Shown here piece after piece: positions 3-58,592 of a stretch of 59,640 nucleotides of DNA (within the stretch, counting starts at the first letter, position 1; the number at the start of each line of letters is the position of its first letter). This DNA comes from Deltaproteobacteria bacterium. Its GTDB lineage: Bacteria > JAEEML01. A model generated the notes under the pieces. The model was not told the DNA's origin. It saw nothing but the letters and a program-made list of their open reading frames with translations, and searched no databases. The stretch is taken from contig JAEEML010000144.1 in assembly GCA_016283195.1 (NCBI GenBank), positions 1 through 59,640 of the forward strand, in the 5' to 3' direction. The position numbers were made by a program, and so were the translations under genes.

Positions 3-284
3 CTCCTGGCCGAGCTCAATTTCCAATATAAAAGGCCCAATGGCCTAAATCCGGAAAATGGCCTCCATGATCAGCCTTTTGCCTTTACCGCTGCTTTAAT
101 GCCCACTCTCTCCATGGGCTATGGCAGCTATGCCCGCCCGCAACTGCGCCTGGTATATGCTCTTACGGTGCTTAACGATGCCGCTATGCGCACTTATGCC
201 GCCCTCGATGCCCGGCGCGATCGCCGCGTGCAACACTGGCTCGGAATAAATTGCGAATGGTGGTTTAACAGTTCAAGGCACTAA
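3..284 (+). CDS. C-terminal part of a LamB/maltoporin-like carbohydrate porin (5' end outside window)
   Basis: Frame open from the window edge; RPQLRLVY and terminal G-x-N-C-E-W-W-F resemble the LamB-family C-terminus; directly upstream of an alpha-amylase. Confidence 0.65.
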   Translation, partial: LLAELNFQYKRPNGLNPENGLHDQPFAFTAALMPTLSMGYGSYARPQLRLVYALTVLNDAAMRTYAALDARRDRRVQHWLGINCEWWFNSSRH

Positions 285-295
285 GGAGGATCAAA

Positions 296-2347
296 ATGAA
301 AGCCAAATATTTTAATATTTTTGCCATGTTATTACTCTTAAGCCAGATGGCTTGCGTAACTCCCAAAGAAGTTGGCGGCGACCCGCACCTCACAAATAAT
401 GTGGTGGATTGGCGCGATGAAATTATTTACCAAGTGCTTATCGACCGCTTTGCCGACGGCGATTACAGCAATAATTATAATGTGGATACCGAAAACGATG
501 CCGGCTACCACGGCGGCGATTGGCAGGGGCTCATCGACAAACTTGATTACATTGCCGAGCTGGGCGTCACCACTCTCTGGATTTCGCCTGTGGTGAAAAA
601 TGTGGAAGAAGATGCCGGTTTTGCCAGTTACCACGGCTATTGGACACAAGATTTTGAAGCCACCAACCCGCACTTCGGCGACTTTACCATGCTGCGCAAA
701 ATGGTGGATGCCGCCCATGCCAAGGGCTTCAAAGTGGTGCTCGATATCGTGGTCAACCATGTGGGCCAGGCTTTTTATTATGACATCAATAAAAACGGCC
801 AGCCCGATGATTACTTCATCGGCCAGGGCTCACAAATTGGCCCCATCGGGCAAAACGATCCGGCCAGTGAGTTTTTGCGCATTCAGGAATGGGATCCCGA
901 TTTCAATATCGACGGCATTCAGGCTTGGACTTCCCTCGGCCCCTCCGGCGAAGCGCCGGCTATTTTTGTCAACTATCCGGCCATTAACCGCGTGCCGCCG
1001 CAGCCCTATCCCTTTGATCAGGACTGGGCCTATAACCGCAAAGGCCGTGTTACCGTGTGGACCACACCGGAAGTTTGCGGCTGCGAATCCTGGGGCTGCC
1101 CCTGGGACAACGAATGTCTGCGCAAACAAGAAACTCTGGGTGATTTCCCAGGCGGCTTAAAAGATATCAACACCAAAGATAAAACCGTGCGTGAAACTTT
1201 AATCGGCATTTTCTCCCGCTGGATCGATATCGGCGATTTCGACGGCTTCCGCATCGACACCTTAAAACATGTGGAGCACGATTATTTCTCTAATCCGGAA
1301 AACGGCTTTTGCCCGAACATCCGCAAACATGCCAAAGAGTTTGGCAAAGACAATTTCTTTATGTTTGGCGAAGCTTTCGACGGCAACGACAACCTTTTGG
1401 GCTCTTATACCCAGGGCGAAGGCGTGGACAGCGTCTTTTACTTTTCACAATATTATACGGTGTTTAGAGGTGCCATGCTGGGTAACGGCGACCGCACCTG
1501 CGAGATTGCCCGCCTGCACTGCCGGCGTAAAGGCTGCAGCAGTGACCCCTGCGGCGGCGGCGATGATTTTACTCAGCCAGTTTATAACAATGTTGGCAAA
1601 ACCAATGGCCCAACCAGCGAAGACGGCCAACTCTTAAACTCTCAGCAACTGGTAGTAAACTTTATTGAAAACCACGATGTGGGCCGCCTGGCTTTCTTTA
1701 TGGGTGCCGGCTGGAGCGATGATCTCAGAATGCAAGTTATCAAACAGGCTCTTGCCTACCTCATGTTTACCGAGGGCATCCCCTGCCTCTATTACGGCGT
1801 GGAACAAGGCTTCACCGGCGGTAACGACCCGGCCAACCGCGAGACCATGTGGCTGGATCGCAACTACACCACTCAGGAATTTAAAGACGGCCATTATCAA
1901 AGCGTCATGAAGAGCTATGACAGCACCGGCGACGGCATGAATGACACAGTCTGGCAGCCTTATGACACTAAAAACCCCTACTTTACCTGGATTAAGCAGC
2001 TAACTGCCATCAGAAAAGCCCATCTTGAGCTCTCACGCGGCGATTTTAATACCACTTACAGCACCACCGGCAGTAGCGGCAAAGACCACGGCATTTACGC
2101 TTTTGAGCGCACTTATGCCGGCAAAACCGCCGTTGCTGTCTTTAACTTTGATATGAATCAGGTAAGTGAAACCAGCGACGGCACCCAAAGTATGGCTGTC
2201 ACCGCCACTCCGGGCACCACCTTTACCGATGCTCTCGATAGTAGCTACACCGCCACTGTCACCTCCGGCGGCTGCCCGGCCAAAGCCGGCCAGGGCTGCT
2301 TAAATGTTTCTGTCCCATCCCGCGGCGTGCGTCTCCTGCTTTACTAA
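296..2347 (+). CDS. GH13 alpha-amylase family lipoprotein
   Basis: Lipobox-like QMAC; motifs YHGYW, DIVVNH, GFRIDTLKH (nucleophile), GEAF (acid/base), FIENHD; SD GGAGG. Confidence 0.92.
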   Translation: MKAKYFNIFAMLLLLSQMACVTPKEVGGDPHLTNNVVDWRDEIIYQVLIDRFADGDYSNNYNVDTENDAGYHGGDWQGLIDKLDYIAELGVTTLWISPVVKNVEEDAGFASYHGYWTQDFEATNPHFGDFTMLRKMVDAAHAKGFKVVLDIVVNHVGQAFYYDINKNGQPDDYFIGQGSQIGPIGQNDPASEFLRIQEWDPDFNIDGIQAWTSLGPSGEAPAIFVNYPAINRVPPQPYPFDQDWAYNRKGRVTVWTTPEVCGCESWGCPWDNECLRKQETLGDFPGGLKDINTKDKTVRETLIGIFSRWIDIGDFDGFRIDTLKHVEHDYFSNPENGFCPNIRKHAKEFGKDNFFMFGEAFDGNDNLLGSYTQGEGVDSVFYFSQYYTVFRGAMLGNGDRTCEIARLHCRRKGCSSDPCGGGDDFTQPVYNNVGKTNGPTSEDGQLLNSQQLVVNFIENHDVGRLAFFMGAGWSDDLRMQVIKQALAYLMFTEGIPCLYYGVEQGFTGGNDPANRETMWLDRNYTTQEFKDGHYQSVMKSYDSTGDGMNDTVWQPYDTKNPYFTWIKQLTAIRKAHLELSRGDFNTTYSTTGSSGKDHGIYAFERTYAGKTAVAVFNFDMNQVSETSDGTQSMAVTATPGTTFTDALDSSYTATVTSGGCPAKAGQGCLNVSVPSRGVRLLLY

Positions 2348-2387
2348 ACCTTAAGCTGTTAGGCCAAGATATACTCAAAGTTAGTTA

Positions 2388-2468
2388 GCTCCTCTGCCTG
2401 CGGCGCCCTCACCAAGGCCGTCAGAGCCAATTCTTACCGCGCGCTCCTCTGCCTGCGGCGCCCTCACC
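2388..2468. repeat. Perfect 26-nt direct repeat GCTCCTCTGCCTGCGGCGCCCTCACC (2388-2413, 2443-2468)
   Basis: Read directly; 29-nt spacer. Confidence 0.85.
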
Positions 2469-2525
2469 CCACAAGTCGTGGAAATTTGGCAGCTCGCCCT
2501 CTCCATTTTCACAAATAGAGAGGGC
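2443..2525 (-). repeat. REP-like palindromic element, related to 59408-59482
   Basis: GCCTGCGGCGCCCTCACCCC plus hairpin GCCCTCTCCATTT...AAATAGAGAGGGC matches the reverse complement of the 59.4 kb element. Confidence 0.7.
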
Positions 2526-2579
2526 TCATCTATTTGAATTTACATGCTTTCTATAAACAACTACCGAGTCAGAGCCCGG

Positions 2580-2652
2580 GCCGGGGCGGCAGCCCCGGCT
2601 AAGCCAGAGGCGGCTACCCAGATCCGGTCTCAAGTGTGGCCTCTGGCTTTTA
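2580..2652 (+). other. Two GC-rich hairpins (terminator or structured RNA)
   Basis: 8-bp stem GCCGGGGC/GCCCCGGC with GGCA loop; 11-bp stem AAGCCAGAGGC/GCCTCTGGCTT running into a T-tract; between convergent genes. Confidence 0.5.
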
Positions 2653-2872
2653 AGACAAAACAGGAGAGATATATTTTGTAACATGCCATAAATTCCAATA
2701 TGAGCCAGACACCAAAAATCCGCGCGGGGCACCCAAAACTCAGATCTTAAAATTTATTTTATCTTAAAAAACATGGAGTTAATTTTTGGGAGGAGAGCAT
2801 GTGGCAAAAACAGGAAAGCAGGATCTTCCTAGGCTTTATCATCAGAACTCACGCGCACCGCTACAATTACTT

Positions 2873-3739
2873 TTAATCACCATGGTTCTTTTTCCATATA
2901 CGGCTTTGCAACGTTGAGGGATACGAATCACCGGCTAAAAAATACCAAGCGTAGCTACTTAAAAAACTGTCATCACCGAAAGCATCATTTAGCCACTCCA
3001 GCGGACCGCGCAAAATGCCATCAACTTTCATGCGAAAATCGGATTTCACTTTAAATTTGCGCACATAATTAAGGCAGGCGTCATCGTTATATTCTCGCGT
3101 GAAATTGCAAGTGATTTTAGAAACATAAGAATTTTTCTCCCAAGGTAGCAAATATATTTTGGTCCTTATGAGGGTAACATCTTTTTCTCCTCCATCTTTA
3201 AGAGGCAATTTGTGGTGTTCTTTTATTAAAGTTAAAATAAAGGCACTTGTTCCAAGTAGATCTTTTTCTTTCTTCAAAGTATATTGGCTATACTTACCTG
3301 TTGATAGCTGATATTCTGCCTCCCTGCGAAGGTTGCCTTCATTAAGTTCTCCATTCCATCTATGCATAAACTTGCTATTATCCTTCTCATGATCAGGAAT
3401 ATCAAACATAACAGAATCAATAGTTTCGCTTCCAGGATTGACGGAAATCACATCACTTATCTTACTTTTACCATGCCAGTCAATAAATTGATAAGGCGCC
3501 ATATTTTCTCGAAAATAGTGATTATATGTTTCATCGATATATATATAAGTGTCCCCATATAGCGGGAAAGCGTAATCCCAGCCATCAGGCACCGGCACCA
3601 TATAATAACTATAATTTAAGAAATAATTAAGCAGATGTGATGAAGAAGTTACCGGCACTTCTCCTGGCTCAGGAGCAGGTGTAGAGCATGCAGGAGCTAT
3701 GAGAGATAAAATTAGGCATATTTTAAATAAAGACTTCAT
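2873..3739 (-). CDS. Lipoprotein of unknown function, putative orphan immunity protein; paralogue of 4058-4987
   Basis: Lipobox-like APAC; shares YNDDACLNYxRKFK and PGE(V/I)P(V/I) with 4058-4987. Confidence 0.7.
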   Translation of the reverse strand: MKSLFKICLILSLIAPACSTPAPEPGEVPVTSSSHLLNYFLNYSYYMVPVPDGWDYAFPLYGDTYIYIDETYNHYFRENMAPYQFIDWHGKSKISDVISVNPGSETIDSVMFDIPDHEKDNSKFMHRWNGELNEGNLRREAEYQLSTGKYSQYTLKKEKDLLGTSAFILTLIKEHHKLPLKDGGEKDVTLIRTKIYLLPWEKNSYVSKITCNFTREYNDDACLNYVRKFKVKSDFRMKVDGILRGPLEWLNDAFGDDSFLSSYAWYFLAGDSYPSTLQSRIWKKNHGD

Positions 3740-6392: not shown

Positions 6393-7895
6393 TTACATAT
6401 TCCGGCGCCAGATTTTCACCACATAATATGGGGCAATATGTCTATATGCCGTTCCACTACCAGTAGAAGTGACAGTAACAGAACCACTCGGTTTGGCAGA
6501 CATAGTAAAGTTATAAAGCTTGTAACCAGAACCGGAGTTTCGGCTCCATTCTATATTGCCTGCTTCTGTCGAAAAAACACCTGTTGTGCCACTGGGTGTA
6601 GTATTTTGATCAGAACGCCCTACAAGTCCACCAAAGGTACCTTTAATTTGATTGCCGCTAAATGTAGCCGTATGTGTATGTGAAGGCAGATTGGCTTCTG
6701 ACAAAGTAATGTTATTGGTTCCGCCCTCTTTTCGAACGGCACTATATTCAGTAATGCCATTAATTTGTCCAACCAAAGTTGCGCCCTGAGCAATTTCAAT
6801 CCAATTGCCACCAAACTTAGTGTTTGGGTGGTCATTTGTTACTGAAATATATACACTGCCAACCGGATAGATAAGGTCAACCAGAGCGGCTTTTAGCTTT
6901 TTCTGATCCAGCTTGGCCACATCGATAGCTGCATCATCGGCAATATCGATGTTTTTTATAGTTCCATCTGTTATTTTAGCAGAAGTAATAGAATTATCGG
7001 CTATTTGAAATGTAGGAATAGCCCCACTGGCTATGTTTACCGCCTGAATACAGCCTTTACATTCCAAAGCATAGGCTATGGTGGCTTTATCGGCTAAAGT
7101 GGCCGTGTCGGCTTTGGTGGCCGTGTCGGCTAAAGTAGCTTTATCGGCTAAAGTGGCCGTGTCAGCTAAAGTAGCCCTATCTGCTATAATAGCTTTGGTT
7201 GCTGTGTCAGCTAAAGTAGCTTTATCGGCTGTCGTAGCTTTATCGGCTATCGTAGCTTTATCGGCCTTAAGTGCGCTATCGGCTGTAGTAGCTTTATCGG
7301 CCTTAAGTGCGCTATCGGCTGTAGTAGCTTTATCTGCTGTAGTAGCCTTATCGGCTTCCAAGGCCTTATCAGCTGTAGTAGCCTTATCAGCTGTAGTAGC
7401 CTTATCGGCTGTGGTAGCTTTATCGGCTGTGGTAGCTTTATCGGCTGTGGTAGCTTCATCGGCCTTAAGTGCGCTATCGGCACTGGTGGCGTGCCCGGCT
7501 TCCACAGCTTCATCGGCCAGCTCGGCTTTGGCAGCCACAATAGCATACGGCATTGCTCTTATAGCTATGCGCGGTTTTAATACTTCTTCACCAATTTTAA
7601 TGCCCAAATAAAGCTCTTTAGCGCTAGCAATTTTATCGACATCTATGCCATCTATCGTGATTGCATAAAATCCATTCTTTACTGTTACTACATCGCGCTT
7701 ACCACAAAGCGCTTCGGCATTATCATCACTGCCTGAATAAATTGTGGCCTCGATAGTGCGATCAACATCGTTAATAGGCTGTCCGTTTTGCATAATGCGG
7801 CCCTGATGGGTAAAAGAGAGCGGAACTCCGGCATAGGCCGGCGCTGCTATCCCAATAAGAGATACAATAACAGCTAAAAAACATACCTTATTCAT
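6393..7895 (-). CDS. Secreted phage-tail-fibre-like protein (fibre 1)
   Basis: Signal peptide ending AYA; N-domain VPLSFTHQG...PYAIVA; ADKATT repeats; C-terminal IYPVGSVYIS...PYYVVKIWRR typical of phage baseplate/tail-fibre tip domains. Confidence 0.8.
   Translation of the reverse strand: MNKVCFLAVIVSLIGIAAPAYAGVPLSFTHQGRIMQNGQPINDVDRTIEATIYSGSDDNAEALCGKRDVVTVKNGFYAITIDGIDVDKIASAKELYLGIKIGEEVLKPRIAIRAMPYAIVAAKAELADEAVEAGHATSADSALKADEATTADKATTADKATTADKATTADKATTADKALEADKATTADKATTADSALKADKATTADSALKADKATIADKATTADKATLADTATKAIIADRATLADTATLADKATLADTATKADTATLADKATIAYALECKGCIQAVNIASGAIPTFQIADNSITSAKITDGTIKNIDIADDAAIDVAKLDQKKLKAALVDLIYPVGSVYISVTNDHPNTKFGGNWIEIAQGATLVGQINGITEYSAVRKEGGTNNITLSEANLPSHTHTATFSGNQIKGTFGGLVGRSDQNTTPSGTTGVFSTEAGNIEWSRNSGSGYKLYNFTMSAKPSGSVTVTSTGSGTAYRHIAPYYVVKIWRRNM
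7075..7485 (-). repeat. 18-nt coding tandem repeat array (ADKATT/ADSALK/ADTATL)
   Basis: Repeated units such as GCTTTATCGGCTGTGGTA, roughly 20 or more. Confidence 0.92.
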
Positions 7896-7916
7896 AAAAA
7901 ACCTCCTTATGGTTTA

Positions 7917-8603
7917 TTAATTCCAAGAGCCGTTACTTATAGTAACCGTGAGACCGTTGCTACCTTCCATAATGCCTGTGCCAACACCTTCAACCACTTC
8001 AACAGCAATATCACCAGCAGCATTCTCAAAACGTCCGCCCATTGGCGTAAGTACATAAGCGGAACTGCCGCGGGCGGTTTGGGCAAATACCGTGGTAAAC
8101 GAGGAGACAAATGGCTGAGATAACGGAATATAACTGCGTGATCTAAGTAATTCATTTATAGTCAACTGGTAGGTTGAGCCGCTTTTTAAGAGATTATTGG
8201 TTTTTATTAAAAGTTTATCTTCCAGTACTTCAACCGAGAGCGGCACGCTTTCGTTCTGAGTGCGTTTTAAACTAACAGCGCTGGAGGCATCTTCGGCCGA
8301 AAGCGGGGCGCTAAAACGCACCGTAATAAGCTGCGTAGTCAGCGGCACATTTTGGGCACCGTCAAAGGGCTCCACTGCGGTCACACAAAAATCAGCATAT
8401 TTGCGGCAAAAATTATTCTCGCAGCGATTACATACCCCCGGGCAATCAGAGGGAACTTTGCAAAGCCGCCCCTCCGGGCATACCCCATTGGGACATGTCT
8501 CTTCCGGTGCTTCTCCGCTATATGTCGGTGGGGTACTGCATGAAACACAGGTTAACGAAAAAACGAAAACAAAGGCACAAAAGCCATAGCGCGTGGTGCT
8601 CAT
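7917..8603 (-). CDS. Cys-rich lipoprotein with Ig-like (Big_5-type) domain and C-terminal GSW tail; partner of fibre 1
   Basis: Lipobox-like VSC; Cys cluster; VTAVEPFDGAQNVPL...ITVRFSAPL...YQLTI Big_5-like pattern; ends TISNGSWN. Confidence 0.72.
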   Translation of the reverse strand: MSTTRYGFCAFVFVFSLTCVSCSTPPTYSGEAPEETCPNGVCPEGRLCKVPSDCPGVCNRCENNFCRKYADFCVTAVEPFDGAQNVPLTTQLITVRFSAPLSAEDASSAVSLKRTQNESVPLSVEVLEDKLLIKTNNLLKSGSTYQLTINELLRSRSYIPLSQPFVSSFTTVFAQTARGSSAYVLTPMGGRFENAAGDIAVEVVEGVGTGIMEGSNGLTVTISNGSWN

Positions 8604-8722: not shown

Positions 8723-9532
8723 TTATTCAGCTTTGGCTTCGGCGGCGGCCGGCTTTTCTTCTTTTTTGGCTTCCGGCGGCAAAGGAGCAACTTCGCCCTT
8801 TAAAAGGGCCAGTTCGCTGACAGAGTTGTAATAGCGCTTTTGCCAATCGGCCAATTTATCTTCGGCGAGTTCCGCTTTGCCTTTGGCAATAATATCGGCC
8901 TGGCGATAATCTTCAATACGCCGTTCCATGCGCGAAAGGGAGCGCTTCAAAGCAGTGCGCTCTTCGGCAAGTTCTTTATTTTTAGCTTTGATAGCCTTTA
9001 ATTCTTCTTCAAGAGCGGCAATGCGCCCCTCAAGAGCCGGGTCTTTAGCCGCTTTTGCCGGCGCCGGTTCTTTGGCAACCACTTCATCTTGAAGGGCTTT
9101 TTCTGCTTTTTTGGCTACTTTGCCGGCTGTTGCTTTAACATTTTCGAGTTCGCTCTTTAGCTCTTCGCGCTCAGTTCTAAGCTGCTCCAGCGAAGCATAA
9201 ACTTTGTTAAATTCATTATTGCGAATATCAAATTCTTCTTTTTGTTTATTAAGAGCTTTTTGTAAATCGGCGATTTCTTGTTTTATTTCGTCGTTTTTAC
9301 GGCGCGATTTAGACAGCTTTTCGCGATATTCCTGAATATTGCCGCTGTTACTCCGGCTGTCTTCTTGCACTTTTTGCAAATTGCTTTTGAGCTCTTTTAT
9401 TTGATCATTAAGAACATCCTGTTTGGCTTTTAGCTCATAAGTTATTTTGTTTTTGCCATTTAAGATAATGGTCAGCACCACTACTACTATACTGGCTAGT
9501 GCAACTAATCCCCACACTGCTTCTACTGGCAT
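8723..9532 (-). CDS. Membrane-anchored coiled-coil protein
   Basis: N-terminal TM helix followed by long E/K/L heptad-rich sequence. Confidence 0.7.
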   Translation of the reverse strand: MPVEAVWGLVALASIVVVVLTIILNGKNKITYELKAKQDVLNDQIKELKSNLQKVQEDSRSNSGNIQEYREKLSKSRRKNDEIKQEIADLQKALNKQKEEFDIRNNEFNKVYASLEQLRTEREELKSELENVKATAGKVAKKAEKALQDEVVAKEPAPAKAAKDPALEGRIAALEEELKAIKAKNKELAEERTALKRSLSRMERRIEDYRQADIIAKGKAELAEDKLADWQKRYYNSVSELALLKGEVAPLPPEAKKEEKPAAAEAKAE

Positions 9533-21869: not shown

Positions 21870-22416
21870 TATTAACCCATTTATTATAAGCCTTTACCGC
21901 CATCATGGCTATGGCTTCCGGCAAATACGCTCCGCTGTCTATTACCATATTGTAACCGCTTGTATCGGCCAAATCCAGGCTGTAGAGCTTCAAAAAACGC
22001 TCGCGCTCTAGCTGCTCGCGCTCTTCCATAAGCCTAGCCGCCTGCAGGATATTTTGCTCATCGCGCTGCGAACAGCGACGAGCTCTTTCGTTTACATCGG
22101 TGTTTAAAAAGAGCGTAAAAGCCTTAATGTGCTCGCGCTGGGCCAAGAGACCGGCCAGGCGCCCTTCCAAAATAATACCTCCGCAACGAGCCAGTTCCAC
22201 TTGGCGCAAATCAAGTTGCTGATCAATCTGCGGATGGCCGGCGACATAAGCGCCAAAGTCGCCCAAAGACATCTGGTACTCGGCAGCCATCTGGCGAAAG
22301 ATAGAGCCGGTATTGACATAATCAAGGCCGGTTTGCGCGGCAATCAGCCTGGCGGCGGTAGTTGTGCCGCTGCCCGGCGGTCCACTGATGGTAATGGCTG
22401 GCTTTTTTTCTTCCAT
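21862..22416 (-). CDS. cmk: Cytidylate kinase, archaeal type
   Basis: ITISGPPGSGTTT, GSIFRQMA, ILEGRLAG; about 180 aa. Confidence 0.82.
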   Translation of the reverse strand: MEEKKPAITISGPPGSGTTTAARLIAAQTGLDYVNTGSIFRQMAAEYQMSLGDFGAYVAGHPQIDQQLDLRQVELARCGGIILEGRLAGLLAQREHIKAFTLFLNTDVNERARRCSQRDEQNILQAARLMEEREQLERERFLKLYSLDLADTSGYNMVIDSGAYLPEAIAMMAVKAYNKWVNNG

Positions 22417-22425
22417 AACGCACCT

Positions 22426-22905
22426 TTATCCTTTTTTGTTCATTAAATACATGGTGGGGGTAAAACCCATGCGCCGCCAAAAAGGGTTGCTTTCTTCATT
22501 AAAAATGGAGGCCCTAAGCTCCACATAGTTAATCCCCCGCGCTTTAAACCAACTGTTTACATGAGCATATAAAAGCCGGCCCACACCGTGGCGGCGGTGG
22601 GCGGAAGTAACCATAAAATCAACTATTTCGCCAAAATAAGCCACTTTAAAAAGCGGCTCGGCGCGGCCAATAGTAGCTAAAGCGTAGCCTATTATCCTGC
22701 CGGCTTCTTCAGCCACCAGCACCAGCGCATTATCATTATTATTTATATGGCGCCGCACTATCTGGCTATAATGGTAAGGCGCGTTCTCACCGCGAGCAAA
22801 ATCGGTATCAAGAGCGGCGTGCATATCAATGAGTTCCACCCAAAGATCGGTCACGGCCGCCACATCGGCAATAGTGGCCGGCCTTATTGTCACCAAAGCG
22901 GACAT
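22426..22905 (-). CDS. GNAT acetyltransferase
   Basis: HRRHGVGRLL acetyl-CoA motif; N..S..FWRRMGF. Confidence 0.88.
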   Translation of the reverse strand: MSALVTIRPATIADVAAVTDLWVELIDMHAALDTDFARGENAPYHYSQIVRRHINNNDNALVLVAEEAGRIIGYALATIGRAEPLFKVAYFGEIVDFMVTSAHRRHGVGRLLYAHVNSWFKARGINYVELRASIFNEESNPFWRRMGFTPTMYLMNKKG

Positions 22906-33045: not shown

Positions 33046-33975
33046 TCACAGAGAGTCCTTAAGACAACGTACAGAAAATCCGCCACCTCTATTGGTAACA
33101 GGCACAAAAGCACCGCCAGAAACGAGAACCAGGCTGTACATATAGTAAGTATCGCCCTGCTCCGTAGCAGACCAGAAGTAAGCACCGTAACCGAAATTAT
33201 GAAAAACGTCATCGGTGCCCCAAAGACCTGCCGGCAAAGCACCAAAAGCTGTGCTGTTAGTAACCAGATCTTGGTAATCATGTATCCACTCCGAATCTTT
33301 AGCTACTAAAGCGAGGAAAGCCGGATTTGGTTTTTCATTATTATCATTGGTTCCAACTACACTCAAAAGGCTCTCAAATTCTGCTTTACTTGGTAAATGC
33401 CAGCCAGCTGGGCATACTTTCAAGGCATCTTCCAATGAATAAATACAACCATATTTTTCTACAAAATCGGTATCAGCATCAGTATTAGCATAACAGGTAA
33501 GCGACGCACCTTCACGGCCAAAAGTGCCAGCCATATTTTTGGCCGACCATATCTGATCACCAATAGTGACAGTTTCTAAAGCCAATGTATCACAGTTTTT
33601 TCCGGAAAAACCGGCCTGGCAGTGTGAACATGTGCCATCCTCTTGTTTGGGAATACCACCACCATTTACACATGTTGGCGTTTTATCGCAATTCGGGCCC
33701 CAATAATTAGCCGTACATTTTGAGCAGGTTCCATCCTCTTGAATACCATCTTTGCAAATGCCATTTACACAAGTGCAAGGCTTGCACTCCGGCCCAAAAT
33801 AACCACTTTTACAATAAGCCAGCTGTTCAGATGTCCCGTCTTTGTTATTTTGGCCGTCTTTACTATTTTGGCCATCTTTACCATTCTGCTCTTGTGGCCC
33901 CTGTTCTCCGGCGCCTCCACAGGCAGCAAAGAGTAAACATAAGGCTATACCACTAACCATTCCTAATTTTTGCAT
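33046..33975 (-). CDS. FISUMP (Fib_succ_major) lipoprotein with EGF-like repeats
   Basis: FAAC lipobox; degenerate collagen-like GQNxKD repeats; EGF Cys pattern; IGDQIWSAKN, CPAGWHLPS, FWSAT, FSVRCLKD. Confidence 0.9.
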   Translation of the reverse strand: MQKLGMVSGIALCLLFAACGGAGEQGPQEQNGKDGQNSKDGQNNKDGTSEQLAYCKSGYFGPECKPCTCVNGICKDGIQEDGTCSKCTANYWGPNCDKTPTCVNGGGIPKQEDGTCSHCQAGFSGKNCDTLALETVTIGDQIWSAKNMAGTFGREGASLTCYANTDADTDFVEKYGCIYSLEDALKVCPAGWHLPSKAEFESLLSVVGTNDNNEKPNPAFLALVAKDSEWIHDYQDLVTNSTAFGALPAGLWGTDDVFHNFGYGAYFWSATEQGDTYYMYSLVLVSGGAFVPVTNRGGGFSVRCLKDSL

Positions 33976-39357: not shown

Positions 39358-40317
39358 TCACTTTTGATATTCTTTATACCAGCTTATAAAGCGCGCTATG
39401 CCCTCTTCAAGTGAAGTCTTTGGCTGATAGCCGATGAGCTTTTGGGCGCGGGAAATATCGGCCCAGGTGGCGAGGACATCGCCGGCCTGCAAGGGCAAAA
39501 ATTCTTTCTCGGCCTCTTTGCCCAGGCCGCGCTCAATGAGCTCAATTAAGTGCATGAGCTCCTCGGTGTGGTTATTACCTAAATTAAGCACCTGATAAGT
39601 TGGCAAATTGGGCGTAAAAAGAGCGCCGAAAATACCGCTCACGATATCATCTATATAAGTGAAATCGCGGCGCATTTTGCCGTAATTAAATACTTTTATC
39701 GGCTTGCCGAGACGAATGGCGTCGGCAAAGAGCCAATAAGCCATATCCGGCCGCCCCCAAGGGCCGTAAACGGTAAAAAACCTCAGGCCGATAGTGGAAA
39801 AGCCGTAAAGATGACTATAACTATAGGCCATAAGCTCATTGGCCTTTTTGGTAGCCGCATAGAGGCTCACCGGGTTATCTACCGGATCTTCCTCAGAAAA
39901 TGGCTGCTTGGTATTGCCGCCGTAAACGCTGGAGGAGCTGGCGTAAACCAGGCGTTTTACTTCATTATGGCGGCAAAGCTCCAAAATATTCAAAAAGCCT
40001 TCTAGGTTGCTTTTTTGGTAGGCAAAGGGATTTTGCAAACTGTAACGCACCCCGGCCTGCGCCGCCAGATGACAAACGAGATCCGGCTTATAACGGCTAA
40101 AGAGTTCGCTAAGTTCGGCAAAATTGCAGAGGTCAAGTTTATAGCCACAAAAGCCCTTTAATTCCATGAGGTTATTATGACGTGCCTCTTTAAGGGAAAC
40201 CGCATAATAATCGTTAAAATTGTCTATGCCAATAACTTCATAGCCGGCTGCCAAGAGAGCTTTGGCCACATGAAAACCGATAAAACCGGCCGAGCCGGTT
40301 ACTAAAACAGGAGCCAC
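39358..40317 (-). CDS. UDP-glucuronate 4-epimerase family SDR
   Basis: TGSAGFIG, LAAQAGVRYS, YAATK, YGPWGRPDMA. Confidence 0.92.
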   Translation of the reverse strand: MAPVLVTGSAGFIGFHVAKALLAAGYEVIGIDNFNDYYAVSLKEARHNNLMELKGFCGYKLDLCNFAELSELFSRYKPDLVCHLAAQAGVRYSLQNPFAYQKSNLEGFLNILELCRHNEVKRLVYASSSSVYGGNTKQPFSEEDPVDNPVSLYAATKKANELMAYSYSHLYGFSTIGLRFFTVYGPWGRPDMAYWLFADAIRLGKPIKVFNYGKMRRDFTYIDDIVSGIFGALFTPNLPTYQVLNLGNNHTEELMHLIELIERGLGKEAEKEFLPLQAGDVLATWADISRAQKLIGYQPKTSLEEGIARFISWYKEYQK

Positions 40318-40336
40318 CTAACACCTCCAATCGGGC

Positions 40337-41275
40337 TTAAAAAGCCGCACTCTCCGCCGCTTTGGCCTTCCTAGCCGCCTGGCTGTTTTCTCTTAACTTT
40401 TTGAGTTCGGCCTGTAAATTGGTTTCGCTCAAGGTAACTTCATCTATCTCGGCCTGTACCTTACGCATCAGCTCAAATTCCTGCTCCATGGTGGCCAGAG
40501 CTTTAGCTGTTTGCGCTTCTGAGGCTTCCGGATTATCGCCATCAATTAAAGTGGCTTCAAGGCGGGTGGCCTTGGTACGAATGCTCTCAATCGCCTGCTG
40601 GAAGGTGGTTATTTTGCTTCTTAGGCGCTTTTCTTCCAAAAGCAGCTCATGGCTCTCCGCGATACGCTGCTCCAAAAGCTCCAAAGAAGCACTAAGCTGG
40701 TTTCTCACCATTTGGTCGGCTGTTGTTTTCAGCTGATTAATCACCGCCTCTTTTTCGCGGCCTAAAAGGGTGGGATTCTCTTCTTCTATATATTCTTCCA
40801 ATTTAATTAAATAGTTGGTTATTTTATTTATTTCGCTGACATTATGCTCAATTATGGCAATGAGCTGTGTGCCGTCGTAAGGCAGTGCTTTAACGGCTTT
40901 GGTGGCGTAGTCGGCTTGCTTTTCCACTGCTTTAAAGAGCTCATCCGGCGGCAGTTCACCGCTTATGGCCCTAATTCTGGCCACCCTTTCGGCCTCGCGG
41001 GCAGCTTTTTTCTCCTTTTGCCTAAGGAGCTTCTCGCCCTCTTCAAGAAGCACTTTGTTTTCATCTTTCCACATGAAAAAACGCACTGTTCTAAAGAGGC
41101 GTATCAGCCCCCAAAAACCGCAGGCATACAAAACACCCGGCCAAAGAAAGACTCCGATAGCGGTCAGAGAGACAAAAGCCAAAGATAAATTAATAAGCGA
41201 ACGGCGACGACTTTTATATTCATTATAAGTGCGCTCGGCCTTAGGAATCTCTTGGGGTGGTTTTAATAAGCTCAT
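40337..41275 (-). CDS. Two-TM plus coiled-coil hypothetical protein
   Basis: Hydrophobic hairpin then long heptad-rich region. Confidence 0.65.
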   Translation of the reverse strand: MSLLKPPQEIPKAERTYNEYKSRRRSLINLSLAFVSLTAIGVFLWPGVLYACGFWGLIRLFRTVRFFMWKDENKVLLEEGEKLLRQKEKKAAREAERVARIRAISGELPPDELFKAVEKQADYATKAVKALPYDGTQLIAIIEHNVSEINKITNYLIKLEEYIEEENPTLLGREKEAVINQLKTTADQMVRNQLSASLELLEQRIAESHELLLEEKRLRSKITTFQQAIESIRTKATRLEATLIDGDNPEASEAQTAKALATMEQEFELMRKVQAEIDEVTLSETNLQAELKKLRENSQAARKAKAAESAAF

Positions 41276-41396: not shown

Positions 41397-42410
41397 TTGA
41401 AAAAGGTTATCATCTTACTATTATTTATGATTATCGCCGTTACCGCCGGCGGTTGGTACACTATCATCAATTATCTTTCCGGCCCCGGTAAAAACGAAAA
41501 ACCGGCCTATATCACCATAAAAAACGGTATGTCGATGAACAGCGCGGCCGAAGCTCTGGCCCGCGAAGGGATAATCGACCACCCCACTTGGTTTTACTAT
41601 TACGCCCGGGCCACCAAGCAAACCACGCTAAAAGCCGGCGAATATGAGATTCCCCCGCATGCCACCCCGGAACAAGTCTTAAAAATACTCTTAAGCGGCC
41701 AGGTAGTGCAGCTTTCCGTAACCATTCCAGAGGGACTTAACTCCTTTGAAATATTTAAGATTATCGAAGATGCCGGTTTAGGAAACGCCAGGGATTTGCA
41801 AAAAGAGTGCGAGAGCAAAGCTTTTATTGCCGCCATGGAACTCCCCGGCCCTACTTGCGAGGGTTATCTCTTCCCGGAGACTTATCGTTTTGCTCGCCAT
41901 TTGCCGGCCAAAACCCTCTTAAGCGGCATGATGAACCTCTTTAAAAAGAATTTTACCAAGGAAATAGAGAGCGCCGGAGCCAAGGTGGGCCTCTCGCCGC
42001 GAGAAATTGTTACTTTAGCCTCCATCATCCAGAAAGAAACCGGCATAGACAGCGAAATGCCGCATATTTCCAGCGTCTTTCATAATCGCCTGGCCAAAAA
42101 TATGCGCCTGGAAACCGATCCGACGGTAATTTATGCCGAAATTCTCGACACCGGCCGTTTTGACGGCGATATTTCTTATAGCGATTTGCGCCGCGAACAC
42201 CCTTATAATACTTATAAAAACACCGGCTTACCGCCGGGCCCCATTGCCAGCCCCGGAAAAAAAGCCCTGGATGCCGCTGTGCATCCCGATAACGGGCGCG
42301 ACCTCTTTTTTGTGGCCACCGGCGACGGCGGGCATGAATTTTGCCCCACTTATGATTGCCATTTAAAGGCTACAGAGCGCTATTTGCGTAAACTCAGAGG
42401 CAAAAAATGA
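41397..42410 (+). CDS. mltG: Endolytic transglycosylase MltG
   Basis: EGYLFPETY, LASIIQKET, DPTVIY, YNTY...GLPPGPI; TTG start after GAGGAG. Confidence 0.94.
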   Translation: MKKVIILLLFMIIAVTAGGWYTIINYLSGPGKNEKPAYITIKNGMSMNSAAEALAREGIIDHPTWFYYYARATKQTTLKAGEYEIPPHATPEQVLKILLSGQVVQLSVTIPEGLNSFEIFKIIEDAGLGNARDLQKECESKAFIAAMELPGPTCEGYLFPETYRFARHLPAKTLLSGMMNLFKKNFTKEIESAGAKVGLSPREIVTLASIIQKETGIDSEMPHISSVFHNRLAKNMRLETDPTVIYAEILDTGRFDGDISYSDLRREHPYNTYKNTGLPPGPIASPGKKALDAAVHPDNGRDLFFVATGDGGHEFCPTYDCHLKATERYLRKLRGKK

Positions 42411-43351
42411 GTGCCCCTGACGGACTCGCTACCGAACTTACCGCTGAGCTTGCCGCTTATTATGATTATCTCACCATTGAGCGCAACAGATCCCCGCGCA
42501 CAGTTGAGAGCTATGAGAGCGATTTAAAACAATTTTTAGAATTTTTAGCCGCGCAAAATGAGCCTAGTCTTAAAGGGCTTAACCAGCGCCTGGTGCGTAA
42601 GTATTTAATTGCCCGCGATAAAGCGGGAGACGGGCCGGCAACGCGCAATCGCAAACTCACCAGCATCCGCTCTTTTCTCCATTATCTTTACCGCCGCGGT
42701 AAAATTAAAGACGATTTCAGCGACCTCTTACAAAGCGCCAAAATGCCCAAAAGATTGCCGCGCAACATCAGCGAAGATGAGGCACAAAATCTTTTGGAAG
42801 AGCCGGAAGTGCCCAAAAAAATTCACGATTCATTAGAGCCATGGCGTCTTCAGAGAGACCACATTATCGCTACTTTGCTCTATGCCACGGGCATCCGGGT
42901 CAGCGAATTAACCGGGCTCACTTTGGGGAGCCTTTCCATTGCCGGGCGCATGATTAAAGTAATGGGCAAAGGCCGCAAAGAGCGCATTGTACCCTTGCCG
43001 GAAGCCATTTTGGGTGATCTGGAATACTATTTACAAAAAGTGCGCCCGACTCTGCTTGGCGGCAAAGAGAGCCAGGCGCTCTTTCCCGGGCCGGACGGCA
43101 GGCCGCTCACCCGCCAAAGCGTAAATTTGCGCCTCGCCGCTCTGGGGCAGGGAAACGGCCTTATGAAACACATTACTCCCCACATGTTGCGCCATAGTTA
43201 TGCCACCCATCTTTTGGCTCATCATGCCGACTTGCGCTCTATTCAGTTGCTTTTGGGCCACACCGGTTTAGGTGCCACCCAGCGCTACACCGCTTTAAGT
43301 TTGCAAGAATTGCAAGATACTTATTTAAAAGCCCACCCGCACGGCAAGTAA
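42407..43351 (+). CDS. XerC/XerD-family tyrosine recombinase
   Basis: ATGIRVSEL, GKGRKER, PHMLRHSYATHLL, LLGH, TQRYT; catalytic set intact. Confidence 0.93.
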   Translation: MSAPDGLATELTAELAAYYDYLTIERNRSPRTVESYESDLKQFLEFLAAQNEPSLKGLNQRLVRKYLIARDKAGDGPATRNRKLTSIRSFLHYLYRRGKIKDDFSDLLQSAKMPKRLPRNISEDEAQNLLEEPEVPKKIHDSLEPWRLQRDHIIATLLYATGIRVSELTGLTLGSLSIAGRMIKVMGKGRKERIVPLPEAILGDLEYYLQKVRPTLLGGKESQALFPGPDGRPLTRQSVNLRLAALGQGNGLMKHITPHMLRHSYATHLLAHHADLRSIQLLLGHTGLGATQRYTALSLQELQDTYLKAHPHGK

Positions 43352-45948: not shown

Positions 45949-46584
45949 ATGAGGCGGACAATCTTAGTAATGGGTGTCTTACTCTTACCGCTTTTGTTGA
46001 GCAGCTGTTCCAATAAACCGGAACAGAATGTGCCGCGCACCAGAGGCGTTAACGAAGCATGTGATGACACAAAAAACCTCTGTGTGGACGGGCTATATTG
46101 CGACAACGGCAAATGCCGCGAATTGTGCAACGAAAACGCCCCCTGCGGCAGTAATGAAAAATGCATTGATAATCGCTGTGTGCCTTGGAGCAATCCAGGT
46201 AGCAATACCGATATTCCAGGTAGTAACACCGATGAGCCTGGCAGCAATACCGATCTTCCCGGCACACAATCACTGGGCGATAATTGCGATGCGCAAAACA
46301 AATGCGCTTCTGGCCTCTCCTGCCTTAGCGGCACCTGTCACAAAAATTGTCAAAATAGCTCAGAATGCCAGACAGGCGAAGAGTGTAGAAATAGTGTTTG
46401 TCAGTTGCCACAAATAGCCGGGGAGACAAACAAAGTGGCTCTGCCGGCCGGCGGCGGACTCACCAACATTGCCGGAAAAACCCAAGGCTCGCGCTACAAA
46501 GTGGAAATACTGGGCGGCGCCATGTCCGGGGCGGCCAAGGGAACTCAAAACTCTGTACAAATCAACGAAGGCTCTTGGAAATAG
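45949..46584 (+). CDS. Cys-rich lipoprotein with C-terminal GSW tail; partner of fibre 2
   Basis: Lipobox LSSC; four 4-Cys modules; ends QINEGSWK. Confidence 0.75.
   Translation: MRRTILVMGVLLLPLLLSSCSNKPEQNVPRTRGVNEACDDTKNLCVDGLYCDNGKCRELCNENAPCGSNEKCIDNRCVPWSNPGSNTDIPGSNTDEPGSNTDLPGTQSLGDNCDAQNKCASGLSCLSGTCHKNCQNSSECQTGEECRNSVCQLPQIAGETNKVALPAGGGLTNIAGKTQGSRYKVEILGGAMSGAAKGTQNSVQINEGSWK
46195..46257 (+). repeat. Three 21-nt coding repeats (PGSNTDx)
   Basis: CCAGGTAGCAATACCGATATT / CCAGGTAGTAACACCGATGAG / CCTGGCAGCAATACCGATCTT. Confidence 0.85.
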
Positions 46585-46602
46585 AGCATAAAGGAGCAAA
46601 CT

Positions 46603-48171
46603 ATGAGAAAGAGCATTTTAAGAGGACTTATGGCTTTTGCCCTGCTGGCGGGCAGCACAACTATGGCAAAGGCCGATGTGGCAAATGTACCGCTCTCTTT
46701 TACTCATCACGGCCTTATTTGGGACGGTGATGAGCTGGCTAGCGGCAACATCAGCATCACCGCCACCATTTATGATGGGGAGGGCAATGCCATCAAAACG
46801 GTTACTAAAGAAGTTACCGTGGAAAATGGCTTTTATAACCTCACCATAGACGAATTAAGCCTTGATGCCATTTTAGCCGCCAAAGACAAATTGGAGCTGG
46901 GCCTAAAAATCGGCGATGATGAAATGGCCGCCCATATTCCCATTTCTTCGGTGCCTTTTGCCATAAGAGCGGCTCATGCCGATAGCGCCTCGACAGCTGC
47001 AAACCTGAGCTGTGACCACTGTGTGACAGAGGATTTGCTCTCAGGAGATATCAATTTAAAACTGGCCAATAGCGGTAACTCTTCCGGAGAAATGGTTATC
47101 CCCAATGGCTCAATCAACAACGAAAAAATTGATTTTAATTATGCCGCTTCCAATGCCAAAGGCGGCCCGGCGACAGAGCTTGCAGCTGAAGTTGTTACCA
47201 CAAACACCATCAAAGAGCTGGCAGTTACCTCCACTAAACTCGCTAACGGCGCCGTTACCAAAGACAAACTAGGCGACAGCTCCGTCGATAGCGCCAAAAT
47301 TTCCGATGGGACAGTTGAACTGGCTGATTTGCATGTGGACTCGGTCAATAGCGCTAAAATTGTCGATGGCTCTATCACTGCCGATGATTTGGGAGCAGAT
47401 TCAGTAATAACAGCCAAAATACTGGATAAAAATGTTACCAATGCCAAATTGGCGGACAATGCTGTAACCACCGACAAAATAGCCAACGGCACCATCACTA
47501 ATGATGATATTAAAAATGGTACCATCGGTTACGGTAAAGTTGTGGCCTCAGAATTTTTAAACAAAATGTATCCTGTGGGCTCTATATATATCAGCACTGC
47601 TCTCAAGACAGCCGCGGAAGTTGCCAGTGCCCTGGGCGGCGGTACATGGGAAGCTTATGCGGCCGGGCGCGTTTTAGTTGGCGTTGGTACAAGCGACCAA
47701 AGTTTCACAATAGGCACCAATTCCGGATCCAGCACAACCAGTTACACACCGGTTGGAACAGTTGGAGGCCACACACTTACTGTAGCTGAGATACCGTCTC
47801 ACAATCACTCATTTACAGGCTCAGCGGCAACAATTACCGTAAAAGGCGGAGATCACACCCATGGTCCAGGTACCCTAACGGGAAAATATTATGGTCGCGA
47901 TAATGATAATAGTGGCGAAACTGTATTTGGTGCTCAAATGGATAACTATAGCGCTTATGATACCTGGGCAAAAGATGGCTCTGTGGTGATCAACGGTGGC
48001 AAGACAGCCGCTTCCGGTAGCCTAACATTGACAGGTTCTTATACTCCAGCTGGGTCTATCGGAAATAAAGGTGGCGGCGGCTCACACAATCACAGTTTCA
48101 CCGGCACCAGCGCCAAAATCAGCACCTTGCAACCTTACATTGTTGTTTATATGTGGCGGCGCAAAGCATAA
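46603..48171 (+). CDS. Secreted phage-tail-fibre-like protein (fibre 2)
   Basis: Signal peptide; VPLSFTHHG...VPFAIRA; 10-aa VTxxKIADGA-like repeats; MYPVGSIYIS...LQPYIVVYMWRR tip. Confidence 0.82.
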   Translation: MRKSILRGLMAFALLAGSTTMAKADVANVPLSFTHHGLIWDGDELASGNISITATIYDGEGNAIKTVTKEVTVENGFYNLTIDELSLDAILAAKDKLELGLKIGDDEMAAHIPISSVPFAIRAAHADSASTAANLSCDHCVTEDLLSGDINLKLANSGNSSGEMVIPNGSINNEKIDFNYAASNAKGGPATELAAEVVTTNTIKELAVTSTKLANGAVTKDKLGDSSVDSAKISDGTVELADLHVDSVNSAKIVDGSITADDLGADSVITAKILDKNVTNAKLADNAVTTDKIANGTITNDDIKNGTIGYGKVVASEFLNKMYPVGSIYISTALKTAAEVASALGGGTWEAYAAGRVLVGVGTSDQSFTIGTNSGSSTTSYTPVGTVGGHTLTVAEIPSHNHSFTGSAATITVKGGDHTHGPGTLTGKYYGRDNDNSGETVFGAQMDNYSAYDTWAKDGSVVINGGKTAASGSLTLTGSYTPAGSIGNKGGGGSHNHSFTGTSAKISTLQPYIVVYMWRRKA

Positions 48172-55126: not shown

Positions 55127-56068
55127 ATGAAAAAGTGTAAAGTCTTAGTTTCAGCAATGTTAACTCTCGCCCTCACGGCCTGCGGCGGTGCCGGTGAACA
55201 AGGGCCGGAAGGCAAGCAAGGCCCGCAAGGACTCAAAGGTGATGCCGGGAGCGACGGCCAACCGGGCAGCGATGGTGAAGGCTGTTATGTAGTGAAAAAA
55301 GATGCCGACCACGGCATTGTTATTTGCCCGGCCGATGGCTCATCATACGTTATCTACAGCCCGGAAAACTTGCCCAAAGCCAATGGTTTACCTAATGGCA
55401 ACGGCGGCTATCTTTACTGCAATGCCGGTTATTTTGGAGAAAGTTGCACCGCCTGCACCTGTGAGCGCGGCACTTGCAACGATGGCCTAAACGGAAGTGG
55501 TGAATGTTCTTGCTCCAGAGGTTACACCGGCAAAGATTGTTCCGTACTTGCCCTTGGTTACATGGCCGACACCAACGGCACCGCTTACAAAACAACCATA
55601 ATCGGCGAACAAATCTGGATGGCTGAAAATATGGCCAGCGATACAGCAACCGACGGCAGCTCAATCACTTGCTATGCCAATACCGACGCTGATCCGGATT
55701 TTGTGGAACATTATGGCTGCCTCTATAATTGGGAAGATGCCATGAAAGTTTGCCCTAAGGGCTGGCATTTACCAACACAGACCAATTTTGATGGCTTGCT
55801 AAATATTGCCGGCGATAACGCCCAAAACAAAACAGATAATCTGCGTTCCGCAACTTGGCTAAATGGCAATGACAGTCTTGGCTTTAATGCTCTTCCTGCC
55901 GGAGACAAGCTCAGTACCAATTACCTTCATTTTGGTACCGGTGCTCGCTTTTGGTCAGCCACAGGCAATACTACCCTCGCCTTCTACTTGGGGCTCGGTC
56001 CTAACAATGCTTATATGGACAGAACCGGCGTGGAAGCTGCTTTCTCCGTGCGCTGCATAAAAGACTAA
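55127..56068 (+). CDS. Collagen-EGF-FISUMP lipoprotein, array member 1
   Basis: LTAC lipobox; Gly-X-Y repeats; EGF; IGEQIWMAEN, CPKGWHLP, FWSAT, FSVRCIKD. Confidence 0.92.
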   Translation: MKKCKVLVSAMLTLALTACGGAGEQGPEGKQGPQGLKGDAGSDGQPGSDGEGCYVVKKDADHGIVICPADGSSYVIYSPENLPKANGLPNGNGGYLYCNAGYFGESCTACTCERGTCNDGLNGSGECSCSRGYTGKDCSVLALGYMADTNGTAYKTTIIGEQIWMAENMASDTATDGSSITCYANTDADPDFVEHYGCLYNWEDAMKVCPKGWHLPTQTNFDGLLNIAGDNAQNKTDNLRSATWLNGNDSLGFNALPAGDKLSTNYLHFGTGARFWSATGNTTLAFYLGLGPNNAYMDRTGVEAAFSVRCIKD

Positions 56069-57611: not shown

Positions 57612-58592
57612 ATGAAAAAGTGTAAAGTCTTAGTCTCAGTAGTGTTAACTCTAGCCCTAGCTGCCTGCGGCAGCGCCGGTGAGCAGGGGCCAGCTGGCCC
57701 AGAGGGCAAGCAAGGCCCGCAAGGACTCAAAGGCGATGCCGGCAGCGACGGCCAGCCGGGCAGCGATGGCGAAGGCTGCTATGTGGTGAAAAAAGATGCC
57801 GATCACGGCATAGTTATCTGTCCGGCAGATGGCTCTTCGTATGTCATCTATAGCCCGGAAAACTTGCCTAAATCCAATGGTTTACCTAATGGCCAGGGCG
57901 GCTATCTTTACTGCAATGCCGGCTACTTTGGAGAAAATTGCGCTGCTTGCACCTGTGAGCACGGCACTTGCAACGACGGCCTAAATGGAAGTGGTGAATG
58001 CACCTGTGCAGCCGGATATATCGGCAAAAACTGCGACATAGAAAACCTTCTAAAGTACAACAGCAAAATATATAAAGTGGTGCAAATTGGCGAGCAAATC
58101 TGGATGGCCGAAAATATGGCTACTGATACAGCCACAGATGGCAGCGCTGTGACTTGCTATGCCAATACCAACGCCGACCCGGTTTTTGTGGAAAATTACG
58201 GCTGCTTATATACTTGGGCTGATGCTATGAAGATTTGTCCCACCGGTTGGCGTTTACCGGAAAAAAGCGACTTCGATGACTTATTAACCTATGTGGAAAA
58301 TAATCGCACTAGCAGTAGCAACTTCTTGGCCCTTATAGCTAAAAGCACTGCTTGGACTGGGCACCAAAACCAAGGTGGTGATGACTTTGCTTTTTCTGCG
58401 CTACCAGCCGGTCGCAGGGGCGTCGATGGCAATTACAGCCTTTTTGGCACACTCACCGGTTTCTGGTCGGCTACATATAATGCTATCGGCACCGCCAACA
58501 CCCTGAGCATCAGTAGCAATAATAGCCCTACCGCCATTACAGGCACGACCGACAAAAGTCTCGCCTATTCCGTCCGCTGCGTGAAACAATAA
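57612..58592 (+). CDS. Collagen-EGF-FISUMP lipoprotein, array member 2
   Basis: N-terminal half nearly identical to member 1; divergent FISUMP C-terminus ending YSVRCVKQ. Confidence 0.92.
   Translation: MKKCKVLVSVVLTLALAACGSAGEQGPAGPEGKQGPQGLKGDAGSDGQPGSDGEGCYVVKKDADHGIVICPADGSSYVIYSPENLPKSNGLPNGQGGYLYCNAGYFGENCAACTCEHGTCNDGLNGSGECTCAAGYIGKNCDIENLLKYNSKIYKVVQIGEQIWMAENMATDTATDGSAVTCYANTNADPVFVENYGCLYTWADAMKICPTGWRLPEKSDFDDLLTYVENNRTSSSNFLALIAKSTAWTGHQNQGGDDFAFSALPAGRRGVDGNYSLFGTLTGFWSATYNAIGTANTLSISSNNSPTAITGTTDKSLAYSVRCVKQ

Follow-up and report, generated by a model that had tools for sequence, protein, structure and literature searches.

A small lipoprotein with a conserved C-terminal tail as a candidate envelope anchor for chimeric phage-like fibres

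Introduction

What holds a secreted, phage-like fibre on a bacterial cell? The question is raised by two modules in the 59,640-nt contig JAEEML010000144.1 of a Deltaproteobacteria bacterium (NCBI GenBank assembly GCA_016283195.1), the whole of which was analysed and is referred to below as the window. In each module (6393-8603 and 45949-48171) a gene for a small lipoprotein (lipA, lipB) is followed by a gene for a secreted fibre (fibA, fibB).

Chimeric phage-like fibres of Bdellovibrio are prey-recognition adhesins. In B. bacteriovorus 21 such proteins, the mosaic adhesive trimer (MAT) fibres, have been described (Caulton et al., 2024; PMC10769870); the excerpted text of that paper states that the MAT N-terminal domain (N-domain) has no solved structural homologue and that its hold on the cell is unknown. 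The anchor of this domain is addressed by no title among the papers naming the family.

The reading favoured here, to which we give about an even chance, is that the lipoprotein is an envelope anchor which tethers a MAT-like adhesin fibre by strand addition to its N-domain. The genome offers a concrete candidate in a dedicated lipoprotein from the same operon; in the predicted complex, the conserved tail of this protein pairs with the signature strand of the fibre N-domain.

Gene pairs in the genome

Profile searches of the genome returned 19 open reading frames (ORFs) with the fibre N-domain and ten with the lipoprotein tail. Nine of the ten tail lipoprotein genes lie directly upstream of an N-domain gene on the same strand, separated by 18-21 nt in seven pairs and by 3 or 31 nt in the other two. 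A ribosome-binding site with a GGAG core is present in each of these nine gaps (AAGGAG in six). The gene-pair counts cover this one genome, in which the arrangement is beyond chance. The original prediction, which had been made from the window sequence alone, had taken the two genes as a unit and the module as being present twice; the unit is conserved and both window copies were confirmed, but the number was understated, as the genome holds nine pairs.

The tails and the N-domains are constant among the pairs, whereas the middles of the lipoproteins, the stalks of the fibres and the tips of the fibres (Gp10_C or others) vary. The type of middle is independent of the tip: lipA (with a Big_5 domain) and lipB (with disulfide-rich knots) both accompany Gp10_C tips, and lipD and lipE accompany other tips. 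In one operon (contig C68, 38995-40905) the tail lipoprotein gene is followed by two tandem N-domain genes (39572-40486 and 40498 to the contig end); the second of these, C68b, is one of the ten N-domain genes counted as unpaired. A single lipoprotein, lipG (lipobox LTGC), is spread over the end of contig C109 and the start of contig C88, and the parts encoded by the two overlap; the contigs therefore join, and lipG is complete.

Lipoproteins and their tail

The tail comprises about 50 residues at the very C-terminus of small Cys-rich lipoproteins. It stays constant while the preceding middle may be a Big_5 domain, one to four knots, or none. LipA consists of a signal peptide, a Cys-rich head, a Big_5 domain (46.9 bits against Pfam PF13205, cut-off 23.6) and the tail. 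Direct comparison of lipA and lipB by BLASTP gave a weak match (E = 0.055). The shared tail is nevertheless real, because a tail hidden Markov model (HMM) built without lipA and run on 24,772 ORFs returned lipA as the sole extra match, with an E of 0.016 that is marginal, and because lipJ, a solid member of the tail family, is a full-length homologue of lipA (E = 2e-36) with a tail that aligns to the last residue. The differing middles and common tail that had been proposed for the two window lipoproteins are thereby borne out.

Lipoprotein calls were read by eye from the sequence using the lipobox rule [LVI][ASTVI][GAS]C, which lipB follows (LSSC). The Cys at position 20 is invariant in all 18 aligned members of the tail-lipoprotein family. 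A loose lipobox pattern is matched by 11 of 15 tail proteins from databases; in one of these proteins, P0024, the FLSC at residue 8 is probably not the lipobox and the Cys in CGC at about residue 19 is the likelier one.

The tail has no significant match in Pfam or NCBIfam, a Foldseek search with the lipB knots gave a best E of 0.6, and a lipoprotein query returned nothing at 0.9 or above from the ESM Atlas. In a monomer model of lipB the knots reach predicted local distance difference test (pLDDT) values of 78-92, and the linker and the entire tail stay below 50.

Fibres

All four ORFs lie where they had been predicted. FibA and fibB align from end to end in BLASTP (29% identity, E = 1e-32) and have in common, as had been noted from the sequence, a signal peptide, the motif VPLSFTH[QH]G (at residue 24 in fibA and residue 29 in fibB), a CxxC, a YPVGS and a terminal ...WRR. 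Both tips belong to Gp10_C (Pfam PF21939, gathering cut-off 27 bits). This family has seven matches in the genome, all above the cut-off, six of them on N-domain ORFs and the seventh (on contig C34) cut by the contig start. The fibB tip also matches the T4 gp10 chain 2fkk_A (E = 2.6e-5). A long spurious ORF (7078-7611) runs on the strand opposite the fibA stalk.

The N-domain has no significant match in Pfam or NCBIfam. An AlphaFold2 model of the fibB N-domain has pLDDT values of at least 89 (in ten-residue blocks) for residues 31-110, which are followed by a helix. Fold searches of the PDB gave a best Foldseek E of 8e-3 and a best VIA Z of 7.4 (root-mean-square deviation 3.0, 84 residues aligned), which makes the predicted fold an Ig-like sandwich of a generic sort, without a specific PDB relative. 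This agrees with what has been published on the MAT N-domain and its lack of a structural homologue. In the ESM Atlas it resembles clusters at 0.92-0.93.

Predicted complex

A complex was predicted from three copies of the fibB N-domain (residues 25-140, 19 alignment rows) and three of the lipB tail (residues 153-211, 18 rows), the trimeric state being assumed in the set-up. The 3:3 complex scored an ipSAE of 0.75, 0.77 and 0.73, compared with 0.00 for the best of three controls, and the runs shared at least 43% of their contacts. When the tool was calibrated, 116 of 157 solved complexes and 2 of 215 mismatched pairs reached the mark; for a multi-copy job on our own alignments, as here, these figures hold only roughly.

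The confident interface joins residues 29-42, 46, 85, 90, 99-101, 103 and 106-116 of fibB to residues 172-195 of lipB. The residue pairs of lowest error (fibB:lipB 38:186, 39:185, 40:184 and 41:183) give an antiparallel register, in which RYKVEILGG of lipB is predicted to pair with THHGLIWD of fibB. The original prediction had proposed that the GSW tail docks the N-domain; docking by the tail is supported by the model, but the GSW end itself is not where the contact falls.

At the predicted contact 40:184 the nine pairs carry W-K (five), Y-E (one), R-E (two) and M-A (one). Position 40 is K in seven and R in two of the nine fibres that lack a lipoprotein, C68b being left out.

Table 1. Features of the two modules and other mapped elements. 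Nucleotide positions refer to the window, residue numbers to the encoded protein.
Feature	Position	Strand	Description
fibA	6393-7895	-	secreted fibre, 500 aa
fibA N-domain	7521-7832	-	
fibA CKGC	7050-7061	-	CxxC, residue 279
fibA stalk	7074-7471	-	18-nt repeat array, about 22 Ala/Thr/Asp/Lys hexapeptides, e.g. ADKATT
fibA tip	residues 339-498, 6402-6881	-	Gp10_C, Pfam E 1.8e-19, 71.5 bits
lipA-fibA gap	7896-7916	-	21 nt; AAGGAGG upstream of fibA ATG
lipA	7917-8603	-	probable lipoprotein, 228 aa
lipA tail	residues 174-228, 7920-8084	-	divergent member of the tail family, terminal GSWN
lipA Big_5	residues 74-171, 8091-8384	-	Ig-like domain, Pfam PF13205
lipB	45949-46584	+	lipoprotein, 211 aa; lipobox LSSC, Cys20
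lipB knots (two)	residues 31-84 and 102-155	+	disulfide-rich
lipB PGSNTD linker	46194-46259	+	21-nt repeat, three copies
lipB tail	residues 157-211, 46417-46581	+	pLDDT <50 folded alone
lipB predicted docking strand	residues 172-195 (TNIAGKTQGSRYKVEILGGAMSGA), 46462-46533	+	from the interface list of the complex prediction
lipB-fibB gap	46585-46602	+	18 nt; AAGGAG
fibB	46603-48171	+	secreted fibre, 522 aa
fibB N-domain	residues 25-116, 46675-46950	+	Ig-like beta-sandwich (predicted)
fibB signature strand	residues 29-42, 46687-46728	+	predicted docking site
fibB CDHC	47011-47022	+	CxxC, residue 137
fibB tip	residues 319-520, 47557-48162	+	Gp10_C, Pfam E 2.8e-21, 77.3 bits
FISUMP-domain match	33055-33579	-	TIGR02145
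FISUMP-domain match	55577-56065	+	TIGR02145
FISUMP-domain match	58065-58589	+	TIGR02145
Upstream gene products with GGG..S..[YF].L..S.GQ	L042, L044 (genome G011); L049, L051 (genome G039)		N-terminal motif

Interpretation and alternatives

In the favoured reading each module would be a two-gene operon for a cell-envelope adhesin. The first gene would provide a small lipoprotein consisting of a lipid anchor, a variable head (knots or Big_5), a flexible low-complexity linker and the constant tail; the second would provide a Sec-exported fibre, probably trimeric, in which the Ig-like N-domain is constant while the stalk varies and the tip can be swapped. The tail, which would be unfolded on its own, would add its central strand (RYKVxILGG) as an antiparallel edge strand to FTHHGLIW of each protomer. 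The base of the fibre would in this way be tied to the lipid-anchored protein, and the tip would be free to meet its target, probably a surface glycan, as suits the adhesin role that we infer for the fibre.

Surface filaments held by beta-strand addition to an Ig-like domain are known from the type V pili of Bacteroidia (Mfa2/FimB) and from chaperone-usher pili. The arrangement proposed here would resemble Mfa2/FimB and donor-strand complementation in that a lipid-anchored protein holds a filament by strand addition, but neither system has a sequence or family relation to the present proteins. Type V and chaperone-usher filaments are moreover polymers of pilins that undergo strand exchange after proteolysis, not trimeric phage-like fibres.

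A number of points weigh against the lipoprotein as an anchor. The contact between tail and N-domain is a prediction that expresses model confidence: both alignments were shallow (19 and 18 rows), the job was unlike the calibration set, and the partner pLDDT of 41-43 makes the fold of the partner uncertain. The end of the tail, with its invariant G..W (the GSW end, lipB residues 196-211), lies outside the confident interface. The identities of tails and N-domains are correlated (Mantel r = 0.82, p ~6e-4), as is expected from co-duplication alone, and the covariation at 40:184, which comes from about three independent changes, is only a hint. The outer-membrane and surface location of the lipoprotein is one that we infer, and the lipobox of lipA (LTCVSC) is non-canonical, its CVSC being off the pattern. 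Finally, lipJ (on contig C79) is an orphan tail lipoprotein, and a lipoprotein neighbour is missing for ten of the 19 N-domain fibres; the tail is therefore no universal requirement.

A bolder version would see the tail as a portable fibre dock, a short peptide that takes up its fold when it binds and, by adding a strand, fixes fibres of the MAT type to a stalk with a lipid anchor; 40:184 would then serve as a small specificity code that would place nine fibres on nine matched stalks. If true, it would be the first envelope anchor identified for MAT-type chimeric fibres and would provide a handle on the anchor in Bdellovibrio. We regard this version as possible but doubtful.

The lipoprotein could instead be a transient helper, i.e. 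a periplasmic or outer-membrane chaperone or a pilotin-like protein, which holds the N-domain during trimerisation or export and then releases it. Synteny and the predicted contact would fit this equally, a tail that folds on binding suits a chaperone, and ten fibres manage without a dedicated lipoprotein. A lipid anchor, rigid knots and a flexible linker, however, resemble a stalk or spacer more than a chaperone, and stoichiometric co-production is suggested by the short gaps with their ribosome-binding sites. The known chaperones of phage fibres act on tips, whereas the variable part of the lipoprotein is independent of the tip here. A helper is unlikely in our judgement.

It is also quite unlikely that there is no binding between lipoprotein and fibre. 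They would then be independent proteins of the envelope, such as two adhesins, with a common transcript and a history of joint duplication, and the strand pairing would be a model artefact. Structure models often place Gly-rich peptides on the edges of sandwiches, and the low partner pLDDT, the Mantel correlation and the Ig-like Big_5 domain that lipA has of its own are all compatible with this reading. It is harder to reconcile with the score of zero in all three controls, and with a tail that is the sole conserved part of otherwise different lipoproteins and occurs in no other protein type of the genome, all ten matches being small lipoproteins.

It is very improbable that the tail, without any relation to the fibre, directs the lipoprotein to the surface as a sorting or secretion signal in the manner of the C-terminal domain of the type IX secretion system (T9SS). 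Its C-terminal place, its likeness to the last strands of Ig-like domains and the weak matches of its profile to Ig_7, PKD and fn3 repeat proteins would suit such a signal, but a signal of this kind should mark many types of cargo, and the tail marks ten small lipoproteins, nine of them beside fibres. No Pfam match to Por_Secre_tail (PF18962) was found at E up to 1, which places the tail outside the T9SS C-terminal domain family. A search for SprA_N gave no match anywhere, controls included, and so carries no weight either way.

Prophage or tailocin remnants, with a fibre gene and an accessory gene left over, are scarcely credible as a source of the modules: the T4 gp10-type tips, the stalks that match phage tail-fibre PHROGs and an integrase-family gene at 42407-43351 point that way, but the integrase has the two-domain layout of the XerC/D type, the fibres bear Sec signal peptides, no tail relative was found among the viral contigs of IMG/VR, and the neighbouring genes include those for YidC, a Jag/KhpB-type protein, a phosphofructokinase, an FHA protein, a DUF58 protein and the XerC/D-type recombinase. 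Flanking proteins were scanned against PHROGs (26 proteins, E up to 1e-5) and Pfam (11 proteins), and among the 26 no match to capsid, portal, tail tube, sheath or baseplate families was found. In the sole head-and-packaging row an ABC transporter matched a small-terminase family through its P-loop (27 bits), and a row for a tail-associated lysin came from a coiled coil (25 bits); both are regarded as noise. By these scans no phage structural genes adjoin the modules, as the original prediction had held, and no packaging genes either; the modules are chromosomal and lie outside any prophage.

Relation to known fibres

The NCBIfam model of the MAT N-domain, NF053851 (Bdello_MAT_N), has a curated cut-off of 60 bits. 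FibA scored 15.7 bits (E = 0.0098) and thus stays below it. Across the genome the model gave 16 matches of 7-15.3 bits, none of them above the cut-off, most within the profile stretch ~84-159 and three within 2-72.

A link is provided by intermediates. The N-domain profile from the present genome matches proteins of a VPxxINYQG type in 6 of 40 unrelated genomes (E = 1e-19 to 1e-5), and genes with an INYQG-type N-domain were found in all 26 genomes of one small phylum (G011 and G044-G068). The VPxxINYQG ORFs found by this profile also match NF053851 (1.7e-7 to 4e-3). Because these intermediates match both profiles, the present N-domain is a distant relative of the MAT base within the same broad superfamily, though it fails curated membership. 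As to the claim that the system was undescribed, the fibre half is already of a known kind, distantly that of the MAT and INYQG-type chimeric fibres, while the lipoprotein partner and its tail constitute an unnamed family.

The likeness to MAT fibres extends to the build and the number of paralogues. As in the excerpted text on the MATs (PMC10769870), a signal peptide and an N-domain that stays constant are combined with a stalk that varies and with phage-like tips that can be swapped, and the fibres form a large paralogous family (19 ORFs in the present genome and 21 in B. bacteriovorus). The present fibres showed no S74 domain and therefore resemble the non-S74 MAT class as that text presents it. 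They differ in that the same excerpts describe no lipoprotein partner dedicated to the MATs, and the present organism is not known as a predator.

The INYQG-type proteins (from G011, G039 and others) represent a fibre base that is widespread in other bacterial phyla and takes in the MAT N-domain. They share the N-domain profile with the present fibres but have no upstream tail lipoprotein, and the tail was not found in G011 and G039, the two source genomes of these loci in which it was sought. A motif faintly like the tail, GGG..S..[YF].L..S.GQ, was considered as a general partner motif upstream of INYQG fibres, where it occurs at 4 of 17 genes in G011 and G039. In a wider sample (44 further N-domain ORFs with 1.5-kb flanks) it was present in none of 33 same-strand upstream ORFs, and for this reason the motif was dropped. 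The INYQG type is expanded in the small phylum, where a genome of 4 Mb has as many as 39 matches, a very large number for small genomes. One outside protein, P0042 (443 aa), has an INYQG-type N-domain and the precomputed label PF06841 (T4 gp19-type tail tube), which would make it an odd fusion of base and tube.

Two phage proteins offer further comparisons. The tips of fibA and fibB are of the same family as T4 gp10 (2fkk), which is a part of the baseplate in T4, whereas here the domain forms the end of a Sec-exported cellular protein without phage genes nearby. The T5 lateral fibre pb1, according to the excerpts of PMC12750041, has a comparable order of N-terminal anchoring domain, coiled coil, fibre and sugar-binding tip; it clamps under the phage collar, whereas in the present system the part of the virion would fall to a lipoprotein of the cell.

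Distribution

No tail was found in 400 diverse genomes or in 251 genomes of the phylum of the FISUMP-rich genome G289 (FISUMP, Fibrobacter succinogenes major paralogous domain). A pattern scan of species representatives gave two matches and no true relative; both matches were judged spurious, as each was a half-tail that was not C-terminal and had no N-domain nearby. A scan of metagenome contigs returned contigs of the present genome only.

An exhaustive profile search of 1.84 billion protein representatives gave 30 tail matches at E <= 1e-3. Half of them (15) are small proteins that end in the tail, and 13 of these 15 are not identical to proteins of the present genome (30-94% identity). The remaining matches cover part of the profile and fall in long repeat proteins of Ig-like (Ig_7), PKD, fn3 or other types. 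When lipB, the fibB N-domain and A2 were searched for in a word index, the matches were paralogues from the genome itself and, respectively, one, zero and four outside proteins. Three outside proteins (P0039-P0041) carry an N-domain of the present subtype. The tail lipoprotein family seems, from these searches, to be confined to a little-sampled lineage.

Genome and habitat

The window is one contig (C3) of an assembly of 3.22 Mb in 190 contigs with 47.8% G+C. No kin of this genome was found in the comparison genome set by a same-phylum search and a look-up of relatives. The genome contains three secretins and 116 matches to the FISUMP domain (TIGR02145). Near-identical short contigs of the module (150-460 nt) were present in gut metagenome runs from four studies, including goat and sheep, one of which is possibly the source sample; none of these contigs bridges the lipoprotein-fibre junction.

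Prey recognition, which had been suggested as one function of the modules, is without support because the genome is rich in FISUMP and is found in animal-gut metagenomes, and nothing in it points to a predatory lifestyle. A large fibre family in an animal-gut bacterium without signs of predation widens the likely roles of such adhesins.

In two FISUMP proteins, at 1438-3021(+) of contig C70 and 21976-22749(-) of contig C126, a hydrophobic segment and a basic patch precede a terminal ...TIGGSW or ...TISGSW; these endings are taken as unrelated to the tail family because the tail HMM gives no match on them. In the window, a gene at 8723-9532(-), between the Jag/KhpB gene and lipA and on the same strand, encodes a membrane-anchored coiled-coil protein of 269 aa with matches of the coiled-coil type only.

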